A stretch of DNA of 64,000 nt from a virus. Taxonomy: Duplodnaviria; Heunggongvirae; Uroviricota; Caudoviricetes. Shown one piece after another: positions 23,759-61,224 of this stretch. Where the stretch lies: IMG/VR virus record IMGVR_UViG_2675903433_000022; one strand, 5' to 3'. Numbering within the stretch: the stretch's first letter is position 1; the number at the start of each line of letters is the position of its first letter. Below the pieces are notes generated by a model, which saw only the letters and a program-made list of their open reading frames with translations, did not search any database and was not told the DNA's origin. A program made the position numbers and the translations under genes.

Positions 23759-23815
23759 ACCTGCTTCTGTATATATAAATAATAAGTAACTTATTAAATA
23801 TATACGGAAGCAGGC
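23759..23815. repeat. ~56-bp imperfect palindrome, copy 1 (cctgcttctg-core-cggaagcagg)
   Basis: Second copy at 56808-56866 has an identical 36-bp core with the flanking stems reverse-complemented. Confidence 0.6.
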
Positions 23816-50755: not shown

Positions 50756-51010
50756 ATGAGCTATGGTGCACAGGTATGGTCGCCATCAAGACAGGAGATG
50801 GTCGATGCGTTGGCCCCTGTTTATTACCTCGATTATTTTACTCCCTCTGGTTCTGGAAGTAGAACATATGAGGTTGAGGCGGGATTGGGAATCGACTATT
50901 ACATAATGGACGTAACCAATGGGAAATACACAAGTCTTACGGTTTCTGGAAATACCATTTCATGGTCTGGAGCTAGTGGCAATTTAAACATATTGGTTTT
51001 TCAAAAATAA
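50756..51010 (+). CDS. Hypothetical tail-fibre-associated protein
   Basis: 84 aa; AAGGA RBS. Confidence 0.5.
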   Translation: MSYGAQVWSPSRQEMVDALAPVYYLDYFTPSGSGSRTYEVEAGLGIDYYIMDVTNGKYTSLTVSGNTISWSGASGNLNILVFQK

Positions 51011-51618
51011 TGTACGGAAGCAAGATATATCGATCTGACGGGAAGGTCTGGATGTCTCCTTCTTTGTCTCCTATCGTTTTTCAGAGAAAGCAGGTTGTTT
51101 CTTTGTCTGGCGGGACAGAGTTTAACACCCAAATATCTCCAGATCGTTCACCGATGATTTTTGTTGCCTATTCGAAAGCTGTTTCATTAATAGCCAACAG
51201 AATAGTGCGTAACAACCAGGTGATTTACAGTTTCGGAGGTCAGGGTAGCGACTCTAGTGCCACGATATACGTATTTTCGAAAGGTATAGCCAAAAAAGAA
51301 ACTTGGGGCATGAGTTTTTTCAATGCGCGAGGAGAGGAGATCTATAATACGGCAAATATCCCACTTTCATTTACCTTTCTTAATAATACGGAGTGGAACA
51401 GTTCTGGAGGGCATGTTTTTGATTACCCGCCAGCGATAATCCCAACATATGCAAATGTGTTCGCGGTTCCAGTACCGGGCGGGGCCATGACAATGGTTTA
51501 TGGATATGCGGCATATGGAAATACTGTTAGTTCCATATTCGTAAACCAACTTAATGGCGGCCATAGTTTTAGCGTAAATGGCAGAGTACCGGTAATAAAT
51601 AGAAATCTGTATAACTGA
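51010..51618 (+). CDS. Hypothetical tail-fibre-associated protein
   Basis: 202 aa; TAATG coupling. Confidence 0.5.
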   Translation: MYGSKIYRSDGKVWMSPSLSPIVFQRKQVVSLSGGTEFNTQISPDRSPMIFVAYSKAVSLIANRIVRNNQVIYSFGGQGSDSSATIYVFSKGIAKKETWGMSFFNARGEEIYNTANIPLSFTFLNNTEWNSSGGHVFDYPPAIIPTYANVFAVPVPGGAMTMVYGYAAYGNTVSSIFVNQLNGGHSFSVNGRVPVINRNLYN

Positions 51619-51628
51619 TGAGTAAACG

Positions 51629-51859
51629 ATGAAAAGATTATTTCTAACAATAGCTGTTGTTCTCTCTCTTACTGGCTGTCAGAAATTGCCGACACCCATA
51701 TGTTATGGTGAGGCTATCATTGGTGGACAGGAGACAGTCATACCTATATATGCTGTTAAAAAGGTTAACGGCTATACCTTATACAAAGCGGGTAGCATCT
51801 ATAACTGGCGATGGGTTGGAGTAGGTGCTTTCTCATCAGTGCGTTGCAATGCTGAATGA
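51629..51859 (+). CDS. Small lipoprotein, candidate superinfection-exclusion (Llp/Cor-like position)
   Basis: 76 aa with signal peptide and lipobox LTGC; located directly downstream of the fibre genes. Confidence 0.6.
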   Translation: MKRLFLTIAVVLSLTGCQKLPTPICYGEAIIGGQETVIPIYAVKKVNGYTLYKAGSIYNWRWVGVGAFSSVRCNAE

Positions 51860-51879
51860 TAAGTAAGTACATACCTACA
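51859..51879. promoter_or_regulatory. GATAAGTAAGTACATACCTAC, late-region motif copy
   Basis: Intergenic before the lysis cassette. Confidence 0.4.
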
Positions 51880-51940
51880 ACAAGAAGGTGAAATGTGATA
51901 TAAATCCGCCATCCCGATTTGACTTTTCATGGAGGAAAAC

Positions 51941-52264
51941 ATGTCGAACGAGATGGCGGGCGTTACAACAGAGCAAGTTGAGCGTATTGCCGCGATCGTT
52001 GCTCGGGAGGTTGTTGGCAAATTAGGCAAAGAGCTACGTGAAGAAATTGGCCAGGAGGTCAATGATCAGCTGAAAACCTACTTTGGTGATATGACCCCGG
52101 CGCAACATAGTATTCAACACTCCAACCTGGACAAGCTCCTTAACCGGTTAGATTCCATCTCCAGTGGGTTCTTTGGCGGCATTGTTTCTAAAATAACGTC
52201 GTTCATTATTACCGCACTGCTTTTGGGGTTAGCCGCGTATGGCGTAAAAAATGGACTGCAATAA
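51941..52264 (+). CDS. Membrane protein with single C-terminal TM segment (possible holin-like protein)
   Basis: GGAGG RBS 5 nt before ATG; C-terminal ITSFIITALLLGLAAYGV. Confidence 0.45.
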   Translation: MSNEMAGVTTEQVERIAAIVAREVVGKLGKELREEIGQEVNDQLKTYFGDMTPAQHSIQHSNLDKLLNRLDSISSGFFGGIVSKITSFIITALLLGLAAYGVKNGLQ

Positions 52265-52277
52265 CAGGAGATCAAGG

Positions 52278-52970
52278 ATGAAGACTCCGAGAGGCATTCG
52301 TAATAATAACCCCGGTAATCTTGATAAAGGATCACCGTGGCAAGGTCTGGTTGCGAATCCAGACGAACCGCGTTTTTGCACGTTTAAAGACCCTGTTTGG
52401 GGGATTCGTGCGCTGGCGGTGACTCTAATTACCTACCACGACAAACGTCGCGCAAAAGACGGCTCAAGTATCGATACCATTCGTGAAGTTATTGAACGTT
52501 GGGCACCGCCGAATGAAAACAACACTGACGCCTACATTAATGAGGTGTCTAAAGCCGTTGGTGTAACCGCAGACATGATCATCGATCTGCATGATTACGA
52601 CATCCTTCGACCTTTGGTTGAGGCAATCATTCGCCACGAGAATGGCCGGGGTCCGCTAAAAACGCTGAACACCTGGTATGCGGCAGAAGTTATTGAGGAA
52701 GGTCTGCGTCGAGCTGGCGTTGTTAAGCCGGTGAAAACCGTGAAGGCTGTTCCTGTAACTAAAGAAACAGCAGGCGCAACTGTTACAGCAGGTATTGGTC
52801 TGGCGCAACTGGCCGATGTTATGCCGCAGGTTTCCGCTGCTATGGATAAGGCACAAGGCCATATCTCTAGCGGGGATACAGTACGCATCATCTTCGGTAT
52901 TGCCACTATTGTTGTGGCCGGATTCATTGCCTGGTCGCAGGTAAGAAAACACCAGAAAGGGATGGTCTAA
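52278..52970 (+). CDS. Lysis-module protein, possible cell-wall hydrolase with C-terminal membrane anchor
   Basis: AGGAG RBS; hydrophobic C-terminus IIFGIATIVVAGFIAW; position between putative holin and spanins. Confidence 0.5.
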   Translation: MKTPRGIRNNNPGNLDKGSPWQGLVANPDEPRFCTFKDPVWGIRALAVTLITYHDKRRAKDGSSIDTIREVIERWAPPNENNTDAYINEVSKAVGVTADMIIDLHDYDILRPLVEAIIRHENGRGPLKTLNTWYAAEVIEEGLRRAGVVKPVKTVKAVPVTKETAGATVTAGIGLAQLADVMPQVSAAMDKAQGHISSGDTVRIIFGIATIVVAGFIAWSQVRKHQKGMV

Positions 52971-52971
52971 T

Positions 52972-53223
52972 ATGCTAGGCAGCCTGATGACAAAGCTAAA
53001 AGTTGCTTTGATTACGCTGGCTGCCGTTCTTTTCGTTCTGGTCGGCGCTTACACGATGGGCGGGAATGCAGCACGACGAGCAATGGAAGAGAAGGCAAAA
53101 CAGGAAGACAGAAAACGACTTCAAAGCACAGTGGACGTCAAAAATGAAACACTTGATGAGTTACGGCGCAAGGATGCTTCTTCTGTTCATCATGAGTTGC
53201 ACAATAAGTGGTTGCGTGATTAA
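52972..53223 (+). CDS. i-spanin (Rz-like)
   Basis: 83 aa, N-terminal TM helix then charged coiled region. Confidence 0.6.
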   Translation: MLGSLMTKLKVALITLAAVLFVLVGAYTMGGNAARRAMEEKAKQEDRKRLQSTVDVKNETLDELRRKDASSVHHELHNKWLRD

Positions 53224-53374
53224 GCCTCAACCCGCTGGTGTGCTTTTCTGCGATGCGGCTACACCGCTATACATCAGCCGTGATGATCTCATGACCGAAG
53301 AGACTGAAAGAGAGGTGCTTTTTCACAATATGATAGGGGAGCGATTGTGTGGATGGGGCAGAAAAGTACCATAA
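53144..53374 (+). CDS. o-spanin (Rz1-like lipoprotein), overlapping the i-spanin gene in the +1 frame
   Basis: MKHLMSYGARMLLLFIMSCTISGC signal with lipobox; start lies inside the Rz-like gene. Confidence 0.55.
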   Translation: MKHLMSYGARMLLLFIMSCTISGCVIKPQPAGVLFCDAATPLYISRDDLMTEETEREVLFHNMIGERLCGWGRKVP

Positions 53375-53551
53375 CAGAAGAGGAGTTTTCTAACATAAAA
53401 TTTGCATATTATTAGAGCACAAGGTAGATTTGGCACATGGATGTCAAGTAAATCATCCCTTGCATTAATGCTGCGACGCATACTCGTAGCCTCTAAACCC
53501 TGACAAGGGTCGCCGCTATGACATTAAGTTAATACCGGCTAAGGTGGACAC

Positions 53552-53935
53552 ATGCTGAACGAAAAACGTTCTATACAAACAATTCGCGATTGCACGAGTG
53601 TTATCGCAACTCATGTGCTGAATAAGCGCAAACTTGAGGTGCGTAAACTTAACAACGATGCGACTGCGCCAAAAGACACTCGCTTCATCGTAACTTTCAA
53701 AGACGATGTTGAGAATGCTGGTGCCAGTGTAAAACCGTTGGCTGAAGCGATTTTCCTGAACGATCGTGTTCGTTTCATTGTGAAGCCAGCAAAACAATAC
53801 CCTGAATTAGCACGGTTTAGTGACCAATTCTCTGAAATTATTGAGAGTGCAATTCGCCGCTTTCTTAATACTCATGGTAGCATTGTCAGCAATACAACTG
53901 CTGATGGTACTGCTCTAAGATGGCACCTACACTAG
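53552..53935 (+). CDS. Hypothetical protein
   Basis: 127 aa; RBS ctaaggtggac. Confidence 0.5.
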   Translation: MLNEKRSIQTIRDCTSVIATHVLNKRKLEVRKLNNDATAPKDTRFIVTFKDDVENAGASVKPLAEAIFLNDRVRFIVKPAKQYPELARFSDQFSEIIESAIRRFLNTHGSIVSNTTADGTALRWHLH

Positions 53936-54672
53936 AACGCACATACTCTAAAAATCTTTATGAGTTTCCTCACCGTGGGGAAACTCGCGTTTCACGTTTT
54001 GGCTACCTCATCAACGAAGCATCGCTTTTCAAAATATCTGAAATAACCATTATCGAGCCTGATGATGATATCTGTCTGTATATCCTGATGGAGAAAGTTG
54101 GAGCACGAGATCAGGGTGAACTGATGGACTTCATTCTGGACAGAGGCGAAGATGGAATGTCTGATTCGGACATTATTCAAGCAATTCTGCGTTCCGACAT
54201 GCTCGATCAGAGCAGAAACACGATAGCAGGCAGAATTGCCTTGCGTGAATACACATTCATCGAGGATGGGGTAGAGATTGACTGCTATCAGATTGCAGGT
54301 GTTGAAACAGAAAGAGCAATAAGGCAAAGGGGACTGTGCAACCTCACGTATCGCTTCCTCCTTCATTGGTACGAACATCTTGTCTGTGATTACAATCAGA
54401 CCATTCCTGGCGCAAAAATCTGGGCCGGTCCATTAATGCGAACAGGTGATGTAAGAATTTACAACGCAAAAACTGAGACGTTCGAGGATGTGTTAGGCGA
54501 ATATGGGATGGGAAAAGAAACCGGCTTTTTGCCGTGGAACAGAGGATTGTTACTTGATCCAGAATTAAGCTCTTGGTTTCCAAATAAGGTGCAAGTTAAC
54601 GTTGAGAAATTTATCGTACTTATCATCTCCCGCAAAACAAGAACCCCAGTTGGTTTATATCTAAAAGATTAA
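53920..54672 (+). CDS. Hypothetical protein
   Basis: 250 aa, overlaps upstream gene by 16 nt. Confidence 0.55.
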   Translation: MAPTLERTYSKNLYEFPHRGETRVSRFGYLINEASLFKISEITIIEPDDDICLYILMEKVGARDQGELMDFILDRGEDGMSDSDIIQAILRSDMLDQSRNTIAGRIALREYTFIEDGVEIDCYQIAGVETERAIRQRGLCNLTYRFLLHWYEHLVCDYNQTIPGAKIWAGPLMRTGDVRIYNAKTETFEDVLGEYGMGKETGFLPWNRGLLLDPELSSWFPNKVQVNVEKFIVLIISRKTRTPVGLYLKD

Positions 54673-54677
54673 CAATT

Positions 54678-54700
54678 AGGCGACTTCTGTCGCCTTTTTT
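54678..54700 (+). terminator. Rho-independent terminator
   Basis: aggcgac-ttct-gtcgcct hairpin plus TTTTTT. Confidence 0.65.
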
Positions 54701-54800
54701 GTTAACAGCCATTGATTCTCGCCTAAAAATTCTAAGGCAGCACCTACCATTTAACCTTTACACAGCAGCCGTAGGCATTTAGGCTATATCACATATAAGA

Positions 54801-54848: not shown

Positions 54849-55517
54849 ATGACCAAGATCTTTGTGGTTGGCGGCACAAAGGGCGGGCCTGGCAAATCCA
54901 CTGTTGCCCAGCAAATTGCCGTTTGCCTGAAAGTCAAAAAGAAGAAGAAGGTTTATATCACTGATATAGATATTCAGCGCACGACAACAAGCTGGTGTGA
55001 AGACCGTCGACAGAACGAAGACCTTGAGCTGATTCCTTTTGCCTACGTTCAGGATGACATCATTAAGCACCTAAAATCGCTTCAGGGTAGAGCTGAGTTT
55101 GTAGTGGTAGATGCTGGTGGCTTTGACTCCGAAATTCAGCGACAAGCGATGCTGATGGCCGACGTTATCATTATCCCGCTGCGTCCTAAGCGTCGTGATT
55201 TGAAATCTCTGCGTGACATCGATCCTATTATCGACAATGTTCGTAATGTAAACGATAAAGTGAAGGTCCGCGCGGTCATGAACCAGTGCCCGGCTTTGCC
55301 ATCACAAGTGTCTCGCATTCTGGCGGCTAAAGAGATTGTCGAGACGTTTGGCATCGAGTCTGCGCCAGTCAATCTATATAACCGCAACGTCTACGATGAT
55401 GCGGAAGAGTCTGGTCGTTCTATCTTCGAAATGACCGGTAGCGAGCGCGACAAAAAGGCTGAAGCCGAGTTTGAAGAATTTGTAGATTATCTGTTGAGTC
55501 TGGAGGAAGAAGAATAA
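54849..55517 (+). CDS. ParA/ParF-family partition ATPase
   Basis: Deviant Walker A KIFVVGGTKGGPGKST; 222 aa (small type Ib ParA size). Confidence 0.85.
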   Translation: MTKIFVVGGTKGGPGKSTVAQQIAVCLKVKKKKKVYITDIDIQRTTTSWCEDRRQNEDLELIPFAYVQDDIIKHLKSLQGRAEFVVVDAGGFDSEIQRQAMLMADVIIIPLRPKRRDLKSLRDIDPIIDNVRNVNDKVKVRAVMNQCPALPSQVSRILAAKEIVETFGIESAPVNLYNRNVYDDAEESGRSIFEMTGSERDKKAEAEFEEFVDYLLSLEEEE

Positions 55518-55876
55518 TGTCCATGAAAATGGGTGACCTAGCAAAGCGCAAAGAGCCTGATGCACCGGCTAAGAACACAACTCCTTTGCGCCAACCAGTC
55601 AGACCACAGGGACGCCCGACTCGTGGCAAAGAGAAAATTAAGAGCCGCACGATGTCACTGGAGGACGAATACTTCGAACTGCTGGAGATGATGAAGTTCA
55701 TCCCTCGTTTCGAGAAATTCACCCGTTCAGACGTGATTCGCGCAGCCATTTTCCATCTGGCAGAGAAGTCACCGCAGGAAATCGAGGACATCGTGAAACT
55801 TAACGAGGCGATCACAGCTGCCGATGTCACGATGCGTACCGATGAAATCAAACGAGAGTTGATGAAAAAAGGTTAA
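55517..55876 (+). CDS. ParG-like small partition / centromere-binding protein (putative RHH)
   Basis: 119 aa, basic disordered N-terminus, TAATG-coupled to ParA-like gene. Confidence 0.55.
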   Translation: MSMKMGDLAKRKEPDAPAKNTTPLRQPVRPQGRPTRGKEKIKSRTMSLEDEYFELLEMMKFIPRFEKFTRSDVIRAAIFHLAEKSPQEIEDIVKLNEAITAADVTMRTDEIKRELMKKG

Positions 55877-55928
55877 AAATCATGCATTGGCGCAATGTAC
55901 GCGCCAATGCATAACTACAGTGTCAGCT

Positions 55929-56696
55929 TTATGCCGCGCTAACACTATGTTCAGTCCTAACCACCCCAACCTTCACAAAAGGGCTACCGTAGCTTGGTGG
56001 CTTCTTGATTAATTTGCCTACATACAGTTTTCTAATATGCTCATCGGCTATTCTGCCAACAAATTCATAACGTTTTGTGTCGGGGCCAAGAGCTATATCC
56101 CTTGTAAAGTACTGCTGAGAACCGGCTTTGACCCAGCATTCAATCCGATAAACTTCCATTATCAGCCCACCATATGTAGCGTAGGCATATTTGAGATTCT
56201 CGTCTCTTGGAACCTTTGCCCATACGCCACGCGTAGCTTCATATAATGCCAGAGCGGACATTCCTGACTTGTAGGTGCTGTTTAGCAGGAAGGCAAGACC
56301 GGCGTGCTCAGGAGCAATTTCAGTTTCCTCTTGCAGCACTAAGTGATGGTAGGCGTCCAGTGATATTCTGCCCATCATGGAACCACTTCCTCGTACCTTA
56401 TTCGTAAGCTCTCCGACCCCCATAAGGTCGATGCATGTCGCCTCAACAAGTTTGGCTGTGGTTTCATCCATACCATGACGAAGTATATCTATGCCTAATT
56501 TTTTATTAGCCAAAAGTTCTTTGATCCGCATGGATTTGGGAGAGTCATCGGGATACTTGATGTGATCGAGACAACGAGTCGATTTGCCTTTTCCTATGTA
56601 AAACGGTCTTTTCATCTTGTCTTCTGTATCATAGAGACAGTAAACATAGTATTTAGCCTTATCCAATGATCTCGCGTATACCGATAAATCGTCCAT
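55929..56696 (-). CDS. GIY-YIG nuclease-domain protein
   Basis: N-terminal YVYCLYD...PFYIGKGKSTRCLDHIK matches the GIY-(10-11)-YIG pattern; lone minus-strand gene. Confidence 0.65.
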   Translation of the reverse strand: MDDLSVYARSLDKAKYYVYCLYDTEDKMKRPFYIGKGKSTRCLDHIKYPDDSPKSMRIKELLANKKLGIDILRHGMDETTAKLVEATCIDLMGVGELTNKVRGSGSMMGRISLDAYHHLVLQEETEIAPEHAGLAFLLNSTYKSGMSALALYEATRGVWAKVPRDENLKYAYATYGGLIMEVYRIECWVKAGSQQYFTRDIALGPDTKRYEFVGRIADEHIRKLYVGKLIKKPPSYGSPFVKVGVVRTEHSVSAA

Positions 56697-56807
56697 TATT
56701 GCATCTCTTAGCTACTGACTAATGCGTTCTATTTTACACATAAGTTTTTAATCAATTTAACAGGCTCAAAGTGTAGAGCTTCTGGGCGTCTAAGACGACA
56801 AGTTATG

Positions 56808-56866
56808 CCTGCTTCCGTATATATAAATAATAAGTAACTTATTAAATATATACAGAAGCAGGTCTT
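56808..56866. repeat. ~56-bp imperfect palindrome, copy 2
   Basis: Core tatatataaataataagtaacttattaaatatatac identical to copy 1; stems reverse-complemented. Confidence 0.6.
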
Positions 56867-56945
56867 TTAAAAGACACCACCAGAACAACTCCCTTCCGTT
56901 TCCACTTCCAAAAACTGCCACCAGTCGCTATCATCCGCTCATTGT

Positions 56946-56967
56946 GATAAGTAAGTAACTACCTACC
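56946..56967. promoter_or_regulatory. GATAAGTAAGTAACTACCTACC, late-type motif copy
   Basis: Immediately upstream of the 56979 gene. Confidence 0.4.
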
Positions 56968-56978
56968 AGGTGAGCCAC

Positions 56979-57719
56979 ATGAGCCAAATCTTTTTCGATA
57001 CCATCGACAACGACCAGTACGACTTCATGACAGAGTGGAATACCGCTGTTATGGACAAGTGGGTCGCTGAAAACATTGGTTTGTCGCGCTGTAAAGACGA
57101 GGCTGAACTCTTCGAGACGAAGTGGTTTGATTATCGCGACATGCATCCTCTCATGGCCACCTGTCTTTTTACGGAGGCATACAAACGTCAGTACTCAAAT
57201 ATCATGCTGACGCACGGTCGCGAACACTTTGAAACAGCTCCGTTCACCACCGGGTTAAAACGCCTGCCTTATCAGGAGTTGTCGACTGCCAATAAAACGT
57301 CGCTATGGAAAGCACGCCAGTTTGCTGACCGCTATTGCTGCTCATACGACTACTTTATCTCCACCGTTCTTTCCGCAGCTGCACGACGACTGTGGGACAA
57401 GCTGCCGCGTCCGCAGCATTTGTGGCAGCCAGAACTGATTGAGATATTCGAAGATAAATTAGCCAGACGCGCAACAACCCGTCTGGATGACTCTCTGGTT
57501 AGCTTTAAGCATATGGGAGACATGCAGTTCAACCCGATTCAGGAAAGCTATTTTGAGTGGATTCTTGAGCGTTTACGCGCCATCCCCCGCAGCAAGCGCA
57601 TACGCGCAATTTTCTCCGCTATCTGGCTAATGGAAATCGTTCCAGAGCGCCTTATTTCCGCCCACTTTCCAGAAGAACTGGAAGAAGCACGGCGGTTTAT
57701 TGATCCCCTATCTAATTAA
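56979..57719 (+). CDS. Hypothetical replication-module protein
   Basis: ATG with AGGTGA RBS; upstream of the helicase gene. Confidence 0.55.
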   Translation: MSQIFFDTIDNDQYDFMTEWNTAVMDKWVAENIGLSRCKDEAELFETKWFDYRDMHPLMATCLFTEAYKRQYSNIMLTHGREHFETAPFTTGLKRLPYQELSTANKTSLWKARQFADRYCCSYDYFISTVLSAAARRLWDKLPRPQHLWQPELIEIFEDKLARRATTRLDDSLVSFKHMGDMQFNPIQESYFEWILERLRAIPRSKRIRAIFSAIWLMEIVPERLISAHFPEELEEARRFIDPLSN

Positions 57720-57762: not shown

Positions 57763-59103
57763 ATGACCGAACTTTGCCATACAGGACGCGGGCTGTCCGA
57801 AGAGTTTGATGAAGATTTCCAGAACAGACTGACGGCATATTTTTGTCGTGATCACGAGTTTCTTACTCGTGCGGGAGATCTGGTTGTGCCTAGCCAATTT
57901 GCCAATGCGGCCAATGCCATATTGGTTAATATGGTTTCGGGCTATTACCGTATGTACAAGAGCGCGCCCTCTTCATCTGCAATTCTGGATATGCTTAAGC
58001 GTGCGAAACGCGATAAGACTATCCGTGAGGAACTATTCGCCGATGTTGTTGCTGCGTTTAAGCGCATCCTTGCAGAAAAATTGTCCGATACCTCGTACAT
58101 GGTTGACCAGGTATCAACCTTCGCAAAAAGCGTAGCGTTTGATGATGCTCTGATTAAGGCTGCTGAACTGAAAGAGAAAGGCGACTTTCAGGGGGCGATG
58201 GCAATCATGGCCAAGGTTCAGCAGATTGGATCGAACGAAGCGACCGGAATCTATGACTACTACACCTCCGCAAGTGAGCGATTGAAAGCGCGTGAATATG
58301 AGGCTTCAGAGGAGTATGTGCCAAACAGCATTACAACTGGACTCCCTCTGCTCGATAGGTTGCTGTACCAAAAAGGCTGGGCGAAGCGTGAAATGGTGCT
58401 CTTCATGGGGTTCGCTAAATCCGGTAAATCGACCGCAATGGGTGAATTTTCCATAAACGCAACGCTTGCTGGCTACAATGTTCTGTATCTCTCGCTGGAG
58501 GTTCACACCACCATTTTATCCGACCGTTTTGATGCAAGATTGTCGGAGACAGAAATGTCCAAGCTGGTGGAACGGCGCGATGAGGTTCATCGTAAGTTGG
58601 CAGAGTTGGGAGCCACGAAGGGGATTGGTAGTTTGTGGGTGGTTGAGCGTCCGTCAGGAAGTATGTCACCGGCAGATCTGGACCGTATGCTTAACAGCAT
58701 GAAAGCCAACGGCATGGTGCCTGACATGGTTGTTGTCGACTACGCAGATTTGATGCGTGCCAGTTATGACCTTCGTGATGATCGCGCCAACATTCGTAGT
58801 ATCTACACCGATTTGCGCGCTCTTTATGACAAGCATAACGTTGCTGGTATCACGGCATCGCAGACAAACCGTGAAGGTGGCGCGTCAGAAGTTGCCACAA
58901 TGATGCACGCTGCCGACAACATCGAAAAAGTACGTATTGCTGACCTGGTAATAACGATCAACAAAACCGAAGAAGAAGAAGCGAAAGGAGAGGCTCGTCT
59001 CTACTTTGCTGGTTCACGTAACCAGCAGGGAGGGATCAGCATTCGCGTTAAACAAAACCTCGAACAAATGCGCTTCATTGAGCGAATCTTAGACGTTACC
59101 TAA
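57763..59103 (+). CDS. DnaB-like replicative helicase (RecA-fold)
   Basis: Walker A GFAKSGKST and DnaB C-terminal-domain-like motifs; adjacent to the primase gene. Confidence 0.7.
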   Translation: MTELCHTGRGLSEEFDEDFQNRLTAYFCRDHEFLTRAGDLVVPSQFANAANAILVNMVSGYYRMYKSAPSSSAILDMLKRAKRDKTIREELFADVVAAFKRILAEKLSDTSYMVDQVSTFAKSVAFDDALIKAAELKEKGDFQGAMAIMAKVQQIGSNEATGIYDYYTSASERLKAREYEASEEYVPNSITTGLPLLDRLLYQKGWAKREMVLFMGFAKSGKSTAMGEFSINATLAGYNVLYLSLEVHTTILSDRFDARLSETEMSKLVERRDEVHRKLAELGATKGIGSLWVVERPSGSMSPADLDRMLNSMKANGMVPDMVVVDYADLMRASYDLRDDRANIRSIYTDLRALYDKHNVAGITASQTNREGGASEVATMMHAADNIEKVRIADLVITINKTEEEEAKGEARLYFAGSRNQQGGISIRVKQNLEQMRFIERILDVT

Positions 59104-59184
59104 AAAATAAGCGTGGAGAACACCTCCACGCTTGATTCATTGGTGAAACAACTTTTCTTTTGCCAAACCACAAAAGAAAAACAC

Positions 59185-60366
59185 ATGAGCCTTTATGTTA
59201 TATCAACATTTAGGTTGGTCACAATATTGCCTGTTAAAAGTGGAATTATCGTGAGCGAGCTGAAAGAGCTAATTACCGAATTAGATTTTGAACAATGGTT
59301 GGACACTGAAGGTATCGTTTATCGACGTGGAGGCGTGAGTGCTCGCGGTCGTGAAGTGAATATCAAGGAGTGTCCGGTATGCGGCAGCTCCAACTGGAAG
59401 GTATATTTCAATCTGACCAGTGGTGTCGGCAAATGCTTCGCTGGTGATCATCCCGAAGAGATTCAGTTTAATAAGCTGGTCTTCCTCAAGCACTACAGCG
59501 GTAAATCACGACGACAGTTCGAGGAATATGTGCAGAACGCTCTTCTTTCCCAGGGGTGGGCACCAAAGAAAGAAGAGATAGTGCTTGCAAGCACAGTCGA
59601 GTTAGAGGGACCACTTGCACTCCCTCGTCATTACGAACTTCCTATAGATGGCCGTCTTCCAGACTATCTGGTTGAACGAAACATATCGCCTGAAATGGCA
59701 AAGTATTTTGACCTACGATACTGCGTCGAAGGCAAGCACGCTTATGTAGATCCGTATACAGATCAGGTTAAAGGACAGATATTCGATATGCGAATACTGA
59801 TACCGGTTTACGATCTGGATGGGGTAATGAAGACATTTCAGGGACGAGACATTACCGGTACAGCAGAACGCCGCTACCTCTTTCCTATGCAGCTTCCAGC
59901 TTCAGGTAAGTTTCTCTACAACGGCCATAATGCGGTCGGCAAACAGACTGTAGTTGTCTGTGAGGGGGCATTCGATGTTATGGGGGTTAAACGAGCTATT
60001 TTTGATGAAGAAACATTACGTGATTACGTGGAACCAATAGGAACGTTCGGGATGCATCTATCTGGTAACACCACTCAGGATGCAGAAGATCAGTTAGGCG
60101 CGTTCCTGACGCTCAAGGCGCGTGGGTTACGTAATGTGATCATGATGTGGGATAGTGAAAAGCAAGCTATACGCAACACTATGGCCGCAGCCAGGCGACT
60201 GACCAGTATCGGTCTTAATGTCAAAGTGGCGTGTTTGGGCGAGGAAGGACTCGACCCGGGCGATGCAACGCCAGAGCAAATCATCAAAGCCTATTATCGG
60301 GCAAAACCGTATACCAAGCAGTTGGAGTTACAAAGCAAGGTTTTGGGCATTAAGGCTCTATCATAA
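59185..60366 (+). CDS. DNA primase (zinc-ribbon plus TOPRIM)
   Basis: CPVCGSSNW...CFAGDH zinc ribbon; VVVCEGAFDVMG TOPRIM; start uncertain (ATG 59185 or GTG 59251); track start 59113 lies in a hairpin. Confidence 0.7.
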   Translation: MSLYVISTFRLVTILPVKSGIIVSELKELITELDFEQWLDTEGIVYRRGGVSARGREVNIKECPVCGSSNWKVYFNLTSGVGKCFAGDHPEEIQFNKLVFLKHYSGKSRRQFEEYVQNALLSQGWAPKKEEIVLASTVELEGPLALPRHYELPIDGRLPDYLVERNISPEMAKYFDLRYCVEGKHAYVDPYTDQVKGQIFDMRILIPVYDLDGVMKTFQGRDITGTAERRYLFPMQLPASGKFLYNGHNAVGKQTVVVCEGAFDVMGVKRAIFDEETLRDYVEPIGTFGMHLSGNTTQDAEDQLGAFLTLKARGLRNVIMMWDSEKQAIRNTMAAARRLTSIGLNVKVACLGEEGLDPGDATPEQIIKAYYRAKPYTKQLELQSKVLGIKALS

Positions 60367-60379
60367 CAATCACCTTTAA

Positions 60380-60401
60380 AATAAGTAGATGATTACTTAT
60401 C
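60380..60401. promoter_or_regulatory. AATAAGTAGATGATTACTTATC, late-type motif copy
   Basis: Intergenic after the primase gene. Confidence 0.4.
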
Positions 60402-60441
60402 TTTCTGTGAGAATACTTTCATCTGTTAGCTAGGAGTTGGT

Positions 60442-61224
60442 ATGAAAGACGAAATTCAGAAATTAGCCTGCGACATCATTGATAAAACTGGTTTAGAAAT
60501 CAGCGAGAGCAATCGGCTAGACATCATTGAAAAAGCCGTAAAAACAGCAATGGATCATATCGCCACTCGTTTGGTCGAGATCCCGCTACCGGGGCTACCT
60601 TATCTGAAGGTTAAGTTACACGTATGGGGTGAACCTTCTTGTGCACGGCGTTCTGCATTAGTTGTTTTTATTAGCAAAGAAAACCCGATCAGTCTTAAAG
60701 TGCAGGTTGGGGCATGGATGGATGGCAAAGTGATCTACACAAATACCGTTTTTTGTGCGTCAAATGACAGTATTATTGAAGAGGCTATTCAAGAATCACT
60801 TCTAACTATGCATAGCTTAGTTTTGCTGGAAGACAAGCAAAACTACGAAGAGTACTTACGGTCGATAAAAGGTGAGAGAACATTGTCACTTAAAGCCGAT
60901 TTCGTTACCCCGACAAACCTGTTGGAAGTCTTGCTTAATAAAGGGGCTAATGATGCCGTAAATGTAATCAGAGAGAGTGAGTATGCGTCTCTTTGCGACA
61001 TGTGCAAAAGCCAGTTGGATCTGGTGCATATCGTTATTGATGCTGGGAAGGCATGTGATGGCGTAATGGCGGAATTTGCTGGGAAGATGGTCAGGATTGC
61101 TAACGAATTACCGATGATAGAGCAAGAGGCTAAATCATACGCCACCAATCATGTCACAGAGCTTCTTGTCCCCTATCGCTTAGAAAGCAATCAGCGCAAG
61201 ATGATTAGCTGGGGAAGTTGGTAA
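60442..61224 (+). CDS. Hypothetical protein
   Basis: 260 aa; TAGGAG RBS. Confidence 0.55.
   Translation: MKDEIQKLACDIIDKTGLEISESNRLDIIEKAVKTAMDHIATRLVEIPLPGLPYLKVKLHVWGEPSCARRSALVVFISKENPISLKVQVGAWMDGKVIYTNTVFCASNDSIIEEAIQESLLTMHSLVLLEDKQNYEEYLRSIKGERTLSLKADFVTPTNLLEVLLNKGANDAVNVIRESEYASLCDMCKSQLDLVHIVIDAGKACDGVMAEFAGKMVRIANELPMIEQEAKSYATNHVTELLVPYRLESNQRKMISWGSW

Follow-up and report, generated by a model that had tools for sequence, protein, structure and literature searches.

The closest described relative of the gene analysed here is CMoRE (Liu et al. 2026, PMC12923530), the renamed PD-T4-3, a type IV restriction endonuclease that consists of a single protein and that, according to the same study, was first found by Vassallo et al. 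2022. The CMoRE/PD-T4-3 sources are E. coli ECOR68, APEC O1 and O157:H7, and the structures are available as PDB 9U7U, 9U7Z, 9U75 and 9U8D (PMC12923530). The C-terminal domain binds 5hmC or glucosyl-5hmC, and the N-terminal GIY-YIG domain cuts at CN11/N9G, leaving 3′ overhangs of 2 nt; DNA carrying 5hmC or 5ghmC is cleaved with no strict sequence specificity, while DNA with C or 5mC is spared (PMC12923530). The functional form is a homotetramer built as a dimer of dimers, which guards against T2, T4 and T6 by direct degradation of their DNA in a non-abortive manner (PMC12923530). A further hallmark, present in most family members, is an autoinhibitory loop, part of a 15-residue insertion, with four consecutive acidic residues (DDDE or DDDD), and neutralising this loop led to higher activity, cleavage of ordinary DNA and toxicity (PMC12923530).

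PD-T4-3 has been found to work in a native E. coli host (bioRxiv 2024.12.20.629700). For the E. coli and Shigella phage-plasmids that make up SSU5 clade J, DefenseFinder lists PD-T4-3 along with PD-T7-5 (bioRxiv 2025.09.12.675607), so the occurrence of PD-T4-3 in these phage-plasmids is not new. The family extends to PD-T4-3Capno of Capnocytophaga, which is 48% identical to PD-T4-3, modification-dependent and able to protect E. coli (Rodriguez-Rodriguez et al. 2025, PMC12366544), and which at high dose also degrades Mu DNA, with its modified adenine (PMC12366544). Because this distant member is still modification-dependent, function appears transferable within the family. Among other type IV restriction enzymes, PvuRts1I and AbaSI likewise fuse a modified-base reader to a nuclease. 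The protein described here differs from reader-nuclease fusions of the VcaM4I and McrB types in that its nuclease is a GIY-YIG domain, and not HNH, PD-(D/E)xK or McrC.

In this region the window, by which we mean the whole 64,000-nucleotide stretch that was analysed (IMG/VR record IMGVR_UViG_2675903433_000022), matches the Escherichia phages PhiR41_1 and CMS-2020a at 98.5-98.6% identity. It is also a relative of Salmonella phage SSU5, and we therefore take it to be an SSU5-like E. coli phage-plasmid. The nuclease gene and its surroundings comprise the following features.

54849-55517, plus strand: ParA-type partition ATPase (Pfam MipZ/AAA_31/CbiA/ParA; PHROG 164, ParA-like, E = 4e-51)
55517-55876, plus strand: gene of a 119-aa protein (PHROG 5111, function not assigned), its start overlapping the parA stop
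55877-56807, no strand: exchangeable cassette of 931 bp, from the 119-aa-gene stop codon to the palindrome
55878-55916, minus strand: terminator-like hairpin of the nuclease gene, with a 17-bp stem and a dG of -27.8 kcal/mol
55929-56696, minus strand: nuclease ORF with an ATG start, 255 aa, PD-T4-3/CMoRE-family protein by homology
56697-56807, minus strand: region upstream of the nuclease gene, within the cassette, carrying an AAGAGA motif
56808-56862, no strand: AT-rich palindrome with GC-rich ends, a backbone element and the right border of the slot
56970-57719, plus strand: conserved 249-aa protein (PHROG 2500) that heads the replication module, right flank
57763-59103, plus strand: DnaB-like helicase, downstream of the 249-aa-protein gene
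23761-23813, no strand: second palindrome copy, with 2 mismatches against the copy at 56809-56861

The 119-aa protein, which has no Pfam match, is presumed to be a partition adaptor, and the stop codon of its gene forms the left border of the slot. A primase-like protein is also encoded in the right flank. Neighbouring genes at 51010-54672 and 59113-61224 gave no defence-model match save one at chance level on the primase.

A preliminary description of this locus, made from the letters of the window and a list of its reading frames, had proposed a free-standing GIY-YIG nuclease gene on the opposite strand and had stated that no other gene in the right-hand 40 kb lies on the minus strand. The 255-aa ORF is real, and the second statement is true at the level of ORFs: among minus-strand ORFs of 100 aa or more between 24000 and 64000, it alone does not shadow a longer plus-strand ORF, the other uncovered minus-strand ORFs being two small ones of 73-74 aa. 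The 931-bp cassette has no second genuine ORF: apart from the nuclease gene, a length of 60 aa or more is reached only by a 69-aa shadow inside it, and with no partner gene in the cassette the nuclease is single-component. An AAGAGA sequence at 56709-56704 provides a Shine-Dalgarno-like motif 7 nt ahead of the ATG. Our scan of 55400-57200 returned no sigma-70 consensus promoter for the gene (the lone match, at 57159, is irrelevant to it), and promoter candidates picked out by eye in the upstream region were weak. The gene runs against the direction of phage-gene transcription.

At the other end of the gene, the hairpin has perfect 12-nt arms (55882-55893 and 55901-55912) and, when folded as minus-strand RNA, a z-score of -4.98, with none of 200 shuffles folding equally well. 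On this RNA it is followed by a U-rich tract (GAUUUUUAACCUUUUUU) that reaches the 3′ end of the upstream plus-strand gene. As there is no T-run after the hairpin on the plus strand, it reads as a terminator of the minus-strand gene and is not clearly bidirectional, as the preliminary description had called it; the hairpin noted there is present and non-random. It looks like the intrinsic terminator of the nuclease gene, travelling with the cassette.

Pfam PF22945 (LEM-3-like GIY-YIG) matches the protein with 30.1 bits, a borderline score above the cutoff of 27, and the N-terminal pattern that had suggested the family, KYYVYCLYD..RPFYIGKGKSTRCLDH, is present. The PADLOC model for PD-T4-3 (PDLC04031) reaches E = 1.6e-23 and 81.6 bits, aligning aa 11-231 with positions 11-238 of a 256-position profile. 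With phmmer, the sequences of the crystal structures were aligned over both domains (aa 12-230), with E = 1.9e-15 for 9u7u_A and 3.2e-15 for 9u75_A. When a profile of 40 homologues (subfamily members 51-78% identical to the window protein) was aligned with 9U7U by hhalign, the probability was 99.3% and the E-value 1.3e-20 over 208 columns at 33% identity. In this profile alignment the C-terminal domain is of the CMoRE modification-sensing type along its whole length, although Pfam found nothing in the C-terminal 147 aa, even with E up to 10, and no NUMOD, IENR1, HTH or zinc-finger module was detected in the nuclease. NCBIfam has no family for the protein, PHROG 5356 includes it with no function assigned, and RefSeq names it "LEM-3-like GIY-YIG domain-containing protein" or "hypothetical".

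Structure prediction agreed with the profile searches. The AF2 monomer model (pLDDT 82.6, pTM 0.76) shows two domains with a linker of low confidence between them (aa 94-107), much as the linker is without density in the CMoRE crystals (PMC12923530). Foldseek with this model returned the four CMoRE entries first (E from 3e-12 to 9e-11, probability 1.00), followed by UvrC GIY-YIG domains. The global TM-score against the CMoRE crystals was 0.38 with a high rmsd, probably because the monomer model positions its two domains differently with respect to each other, and these global scores are therefore of no use in their present form. CMoRE is therefore the top match by HMM, by sequence and by fold, and the two share a free-standing single gene of about 250 aa, an N-terminal GIYxY-YIG domain, a flexible linker and the catalytic Y/Y/Y/R/E set. 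Judged by this homology, the assignment of the nuclease as a full-length PD-T4-3/CMoRE homologue is firm.

For the C-terminal reader alone, the predicted model shows a likeness to VcaM4I and to McrB N-terminal domains that is marginal, being seen in the model only, with no Pfam sequence signal. The structure paper described the CMoRE reader as a fold without homologues (PMC12923530). With low probability, the reader might be a diverged PUA-type (YTH/EVE/ASCH-like) fold, which, if true, would tie CMoRE to the classical readers of modified bases.

The catalytic core is intact. Residues Y17, Y19 and Y33 align with CMoRE Y17, Y19 and Y31, which form the "GIYxY-YIG" motif, while R41, H45, E85 and N99 align with R39, H43, E93 and N105; the CMoRE numbers of the latter four are offsets from the PDB chain, as the structure paper names only the three tyrosines. 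All seven are invariant in 40 of 40 homologues, including the arginine and glutamate whose absence would have spoken against a GIY-YIG nuclease. Tetramer-interface residues are partly kept (CMoRE R80 = R73, V92 = V84, L96 = C88), and a CMoRE-like oligomer may form.

Comparison of the alignments also revealed clear differences from CMoRE. Identity to the experimentally tested family members is approximately 26-33%, a 4-aa deletion precedes RHG, and 4 aa are inserted at KSGMS. The autoinhibitory loop falls 5 residues short of its CMoRE counterpart; its sequence, YPDDSP, contains two acidic side chains (DD) as against DDDE or DDDD, so the inserted loop with four acidic residues that is the hallmark of CMoRE is absent. 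In the AF2 model about 5 loop residues remain between helices 41-47 and 53-63, and across the 40 homologues the loop is short, with variable sequence and variable acidity. Members of this widespread subfamily are 245-255 aa long and have two invariant cysteines, C42 and C88, which correspond to V and L in CMoRE; C88 replaces the interface residue L96. The shortened inhibitory loop of the nuclease subfamily is, together with the nucleotide-level definition of the slot given below, what we consider new at this locus.

Judged chiefly by homology, the gene probably encodes a member of the PD-T4-3/CMoRE family that acts as a type IV restriction endonuclease without partner proteins and that the phage-plasmid carries as anti-phage cargo. 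A defence role was one of the options in the preliminary description, and the full-length homology to PD-T4-3/CMoRE speaks for it, whereas we found no support for the anti-defence role named beside it. If the gene is expressed, the C-terminal domain would bind hypermodified bases in incoming phage DNA, the likeliest target being the 5-hydroxymethyl- or glucosyl-hydroxymethyl-cytosine of T-even phages, and the GIY-YIG domain (Y17/Y19/Y33/R41/E85 with a divalent metal) would cut the DNA so bound, while host and phage-plasmid DNA, being unmodified, would be spared. In this way the resident element would shield its host and itself from lytic competitors.

How far the target of CMoRE can be carried over is less clear-cut, since an identity of ~26-33% to the tested members does not allow substrate specificity to be transferred with confidence. 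We consider it rather doubtful, although worth keeping in mind, that the short-loop subfamily is a functionally distinct branch of CMoRE, directed at other or broader hypermodifications or holding itself in check by something other than an acidic lid. Spelled out as a full alternative, in which an enzyme of the same fold acts on another hypermodification (modified adenines, say, or further pyrimidines bearing hydroxymethyl or sugar groups) or on a broader set and protects its own DNA without an acidic lid, this reading is unlikely. The identity of about 30% to tested enzymes is consistent with it, as are the loop that is 5 aa shorter, has 2 acidic residues as against 4 and varies within the subfamily, the subfamily-invariant C42 and C88 at positions of V and L in CMoRE, and the plasticity of PD-T4-3Capno towards Mu DNA. 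Because neutralising the CMoRE loop gave off-target cutting and toxicity, a nuclease with so short a loop would have to be restrained otherwise or behave differently. On the other side, its C-terminal domain aligns over its full length with the 5hmC-binding domain, and all family members tested to date restrict T-even phages. CMoRE, moreover, reads 5hmC via a main-chain carbonyl in the crystal (PMC12923530), so divergence of the sequence need not alter recognition. The shortened loop would in any case be a natural test of the "safety-catch" model of CMoRE.

The surroundings of the gene bear on its role as well. We collected 80 related loci from IMG/VR via the right-flank protein, added three GenBank phages, and examined in each the DNA that separates the 119-aa gene from the right-flank gene. 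Whatever the type of cassette, homology to the window ended at 55872-55880 and resumed at 56803-56808 in all 11 relatives aligned, with the right breakpoint at 56807-56808 in 10 of the 11. Among approximately 77 relatives, this slot had 17 content classes with the same two borders, comprising the GIY-YIG cassette, the empty class and at least 15 other cassettes, of which the main ones are listed with their best defence-model matches.

GIY-YIG cassette: 26 loci and the window
357-aa protein: 13 loci, no defence-model match
KAP-NTPase proteins: PDC-S49, E = 2e-21
DUF2971 proteins: PDC-S31, E down to 1e-40
395-398-aa proteins: PD-T7-5, E = 4.5e-139
Membrane-protein pairs, as in SSU5 itself: no defence-model match
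Lipoprotein: no defence-model match
Empty: 5 loci (L005, L027, L032, L072, L075)

That at least 15 unrelated cassettes have the same borders makes the borders a property of the slot. Since it is empty in five relatives, the empty sites that a comparison had been suggested to look for, and otherwise holds at least 15 cassettes including PD-T7-5, PDC-S31 and PDC-S49 candidates, we regard the slot as a defence hotspot. The nuclease gene and its own terminator hairpin constitute one 931-bp cassette in this hotspot between the partition operon and the palindrome, and related phage-plasmids have different defence genes, or none, in its place. Defence hotspots in P2 and P4 were reportedly described by Rousset and colleagues in 2022. 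As in those hotspots and in the defence cargo of phage-plasmids (PMC11652158; bioRxiv 2025.09.12.675607), the cassettes here have fixed, conserved borders, are mutually exclusive and are rich in known or candidate defence genes, with empty variants and exchange between lineages; unlike them, the present site is specific to SSU5-like elements and runs from the partition operon to the 53-nt palindrome ahead of the replication genes. In the literature that we searched, no SSU5 hotspot had been reported for this site and there was no description of the slot at the nucleotide level; what came up was an antibiotic-resistance locus in a different part of the elements.

The distribution of the cassette shows recent movement. 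At loci L046-L053 the cassette shares 98-99% identity with that of the window, against 80-84% for the genes on either side, so the GIY-YIG cassette has moved recently between diverged backbones; the 357-aa cassette, by comparison, diverges in step with its backbone (84%). Loci L051 and L054 are chimeras in which identity drops at the right edge of the cassette, and in a third chimera, L044, it drops inside the right-flank gene. Exchange probably takes place by homologous recombination in the conserved flanks. In 5426 complete E. coli genomes, we found the cassette in 107 (~2%), always on plasmids, and the backbone segment in 259. The gene is not universally conserved at this position, as ~106 of ~250 E. 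coli backbone plasmids carry it. A search of plasmid records gave 178 matches, 135 of them at least 95% identical, mostly on non-mobilizable E. coli plasmids of ~100-110 kb. Lone chromosomal homologues, ~73-76% identical, occur in Salmonella, beside guaA, and in Providencia, in the vicinity of mutS.

The preliminary description had also raised an inserted homing endonuclease, and the protein does share its GIY-YIG catalytic domain with homing endonucleases of the I-TevI and Seg type. On this account, a free-standing enzyme would cut empty slots and be copied into them by recombinational repair. Presence of the gene varies among relatives, some of which have an empty site; cassettes that are 98-99% identical lie in backbones of 80-84% identity, while the 357-aa cassette instead tracks its backbone; and depositors have labelled distant homologues in jumbo phages as homing nucleases. 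Beside the cassette, identity at the 3′ end of the upstream gene is slightly raised as well, at 89.6-92.7%. In lineage-B relatives bearing the 357-aa cassette it is 87.6-88.7%, the reference in each case being the respective lineage-A one, and the rise resembles a co-conversion tract. The recent spread of the cassette leaves the homing account a small probability, and we judge it very unlikely. The C-terminal half is homologous to the modification sensor of CMoRE, so that a predicted base-modification reader stands where I-TevI and Seg proteins carry sequence-specific DNA-binding modules, and no such module was detected. The same slot with the same borders accommodates at least 15 unrelated cassettes, many of them without a nuclease, and the close homologues in Salmonella and Providencia stand alone in chromosomes. 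CMoRE itself is without strict sequence specificity and spares unmodified DNA (PMC12923530).

It is similarly improbable that the nuclease works for the phage-plasmid itself, in its maintenance or its life cycle, be it in degradation of host DNA during lytic growth (as T4 EndoII), as an addiction toxin or in anti-defence, given that over half of the otherwise near-identical backbones lack the gene and carry unrelated defence candidates instead, that the cassette has no partner antitoxin gene, that the gene opposes phage-gene transcription and has its own terminator, and that the two-domain architecture fits a defence enzyme and not EndoII.

For a PD-T4-3/CMoRE-family restriction endonuclease, the value of the assignment lies in annotation, as the generic RefSeq name masks a relative of a structurally solved anti-T-even restriction enzyme. 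This matters for the prediction of host range in phage therapy because T4-like phages are common therapeutic candidates. The definition of the slot also offers a handle for finding defence candidates in SSU5-like elements, with the 357-aa protein, the membrane-protein pairs and the lipoprotein as candidates already located in it.

Lastly, the palindrome at the right border was examined in the window and in the relatives. It spans 53 nt (56809-56861), with arms at 56808-56824 and 56846-56862 and an inner palindrome, and the copy at 23761-23813 has no equivalent expected by chance (0 such matches); the element reported next to the nuclease gene, with another copy in the window, is accordingly there and non-random. 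The gene does lie between the two elements, but its description as bracketed by them needs correcting, since the two are not matched ends: the hairpin belongs to the variable cassette and the palindrome to the conserved backbone. We also considered inverted repeats as the ends of an inserted element and rejected them, as the palindrome is also found in empty relatives and the left hairpin, unrelated in sequence, is a terminator. In relatives with an empty slot, the palindrome lies ~33 nt past the stop codon of the upstream gene. It is a backbone feature, found in all relatives including those with an empty slot, and a role as centromere or operator would be our guess.

Homologues of the window protein, a 255-aa member of the PD-T4-3/CMoRE family, were found both in bacterial chromosomes and in lytic jumbo phages. 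The chromosomal homologues are isolated single genes with 73-76% identity to the window protein (L085 6001-6744; L087-L089 6001-6750); that of Salmonella has a DUF5384 gene on one side and guaA on the other, and that of Providencia lies near mutS and adjoins an acetyltransferase gene. Identity is about 25-30% for the matches in jumbo phages of Serratia, Pectobacterium, Klebsiella and Pseudomonas (H13-H29), and for most Serratia and Pectobacterium phages the match runs from aa 10-12 to 227-236, taking in both the GIY-YIG domain and the C-terminal domain. Depositors annotated these jumbo-phage proteins as homing or GIY-YIG endonucleases; instead of homing nucleases, they may be CMoRE-like enzymes directed against competing phages with modified DNA.

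The slot that holds the GIY-YIG gene in the window carries other cassettes in related loci:

L004 4598-6001, minus strand: 357-aa protein, also in 12 further loci
L003, L049, L038 and L082: membrane-protein pairs
L066: 225-aa lipoprotein

The 357-aa protein, the membrane-protein pairs and the lipoprotein had no PADLOC or Pfam match, and their location in a defence hotspot marks them out as candidates for novel defence or exclusion genes.

One border of the slot is an AT-rich palindrome of 53-55 nt with GC-rich ends, of which the window has two copies only:

56808-56862: copy 1
23761-23813: copy 2

As a guess, the palindrome could serve the phage-plasmid as a centromere (parS-like) or an operator site. 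Where the slot is empty in a relative, copy 1 lies 33 nt downstream of the small gene next after parA, counted from that gene's stop codon. The start of this gene overlaps the parA stop codon, and its 119-aa product matched only PHROG 5111, a family of unknown function. The label "RelE/ParE putative toxin" given to the corresponding protein in the phage Cyrano record (CYRAN_29, L001 3118-3477) looks doubtful.

Relatives also differ in the region that separates the lysis genes from parA (window, approximately 53066-54800; Cyrano, L001 1333-2167; L003 2138-3294). Plus-strand genes of unknown function occupy it in the window, PhiR41_1 and SSU5, with no match among defence or Pfam models for the window proteins, while Cyrano has a minus-strand KacT-type acetyltransferase toxin and its antitoxin there. 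This stretch may be a second variable slot.
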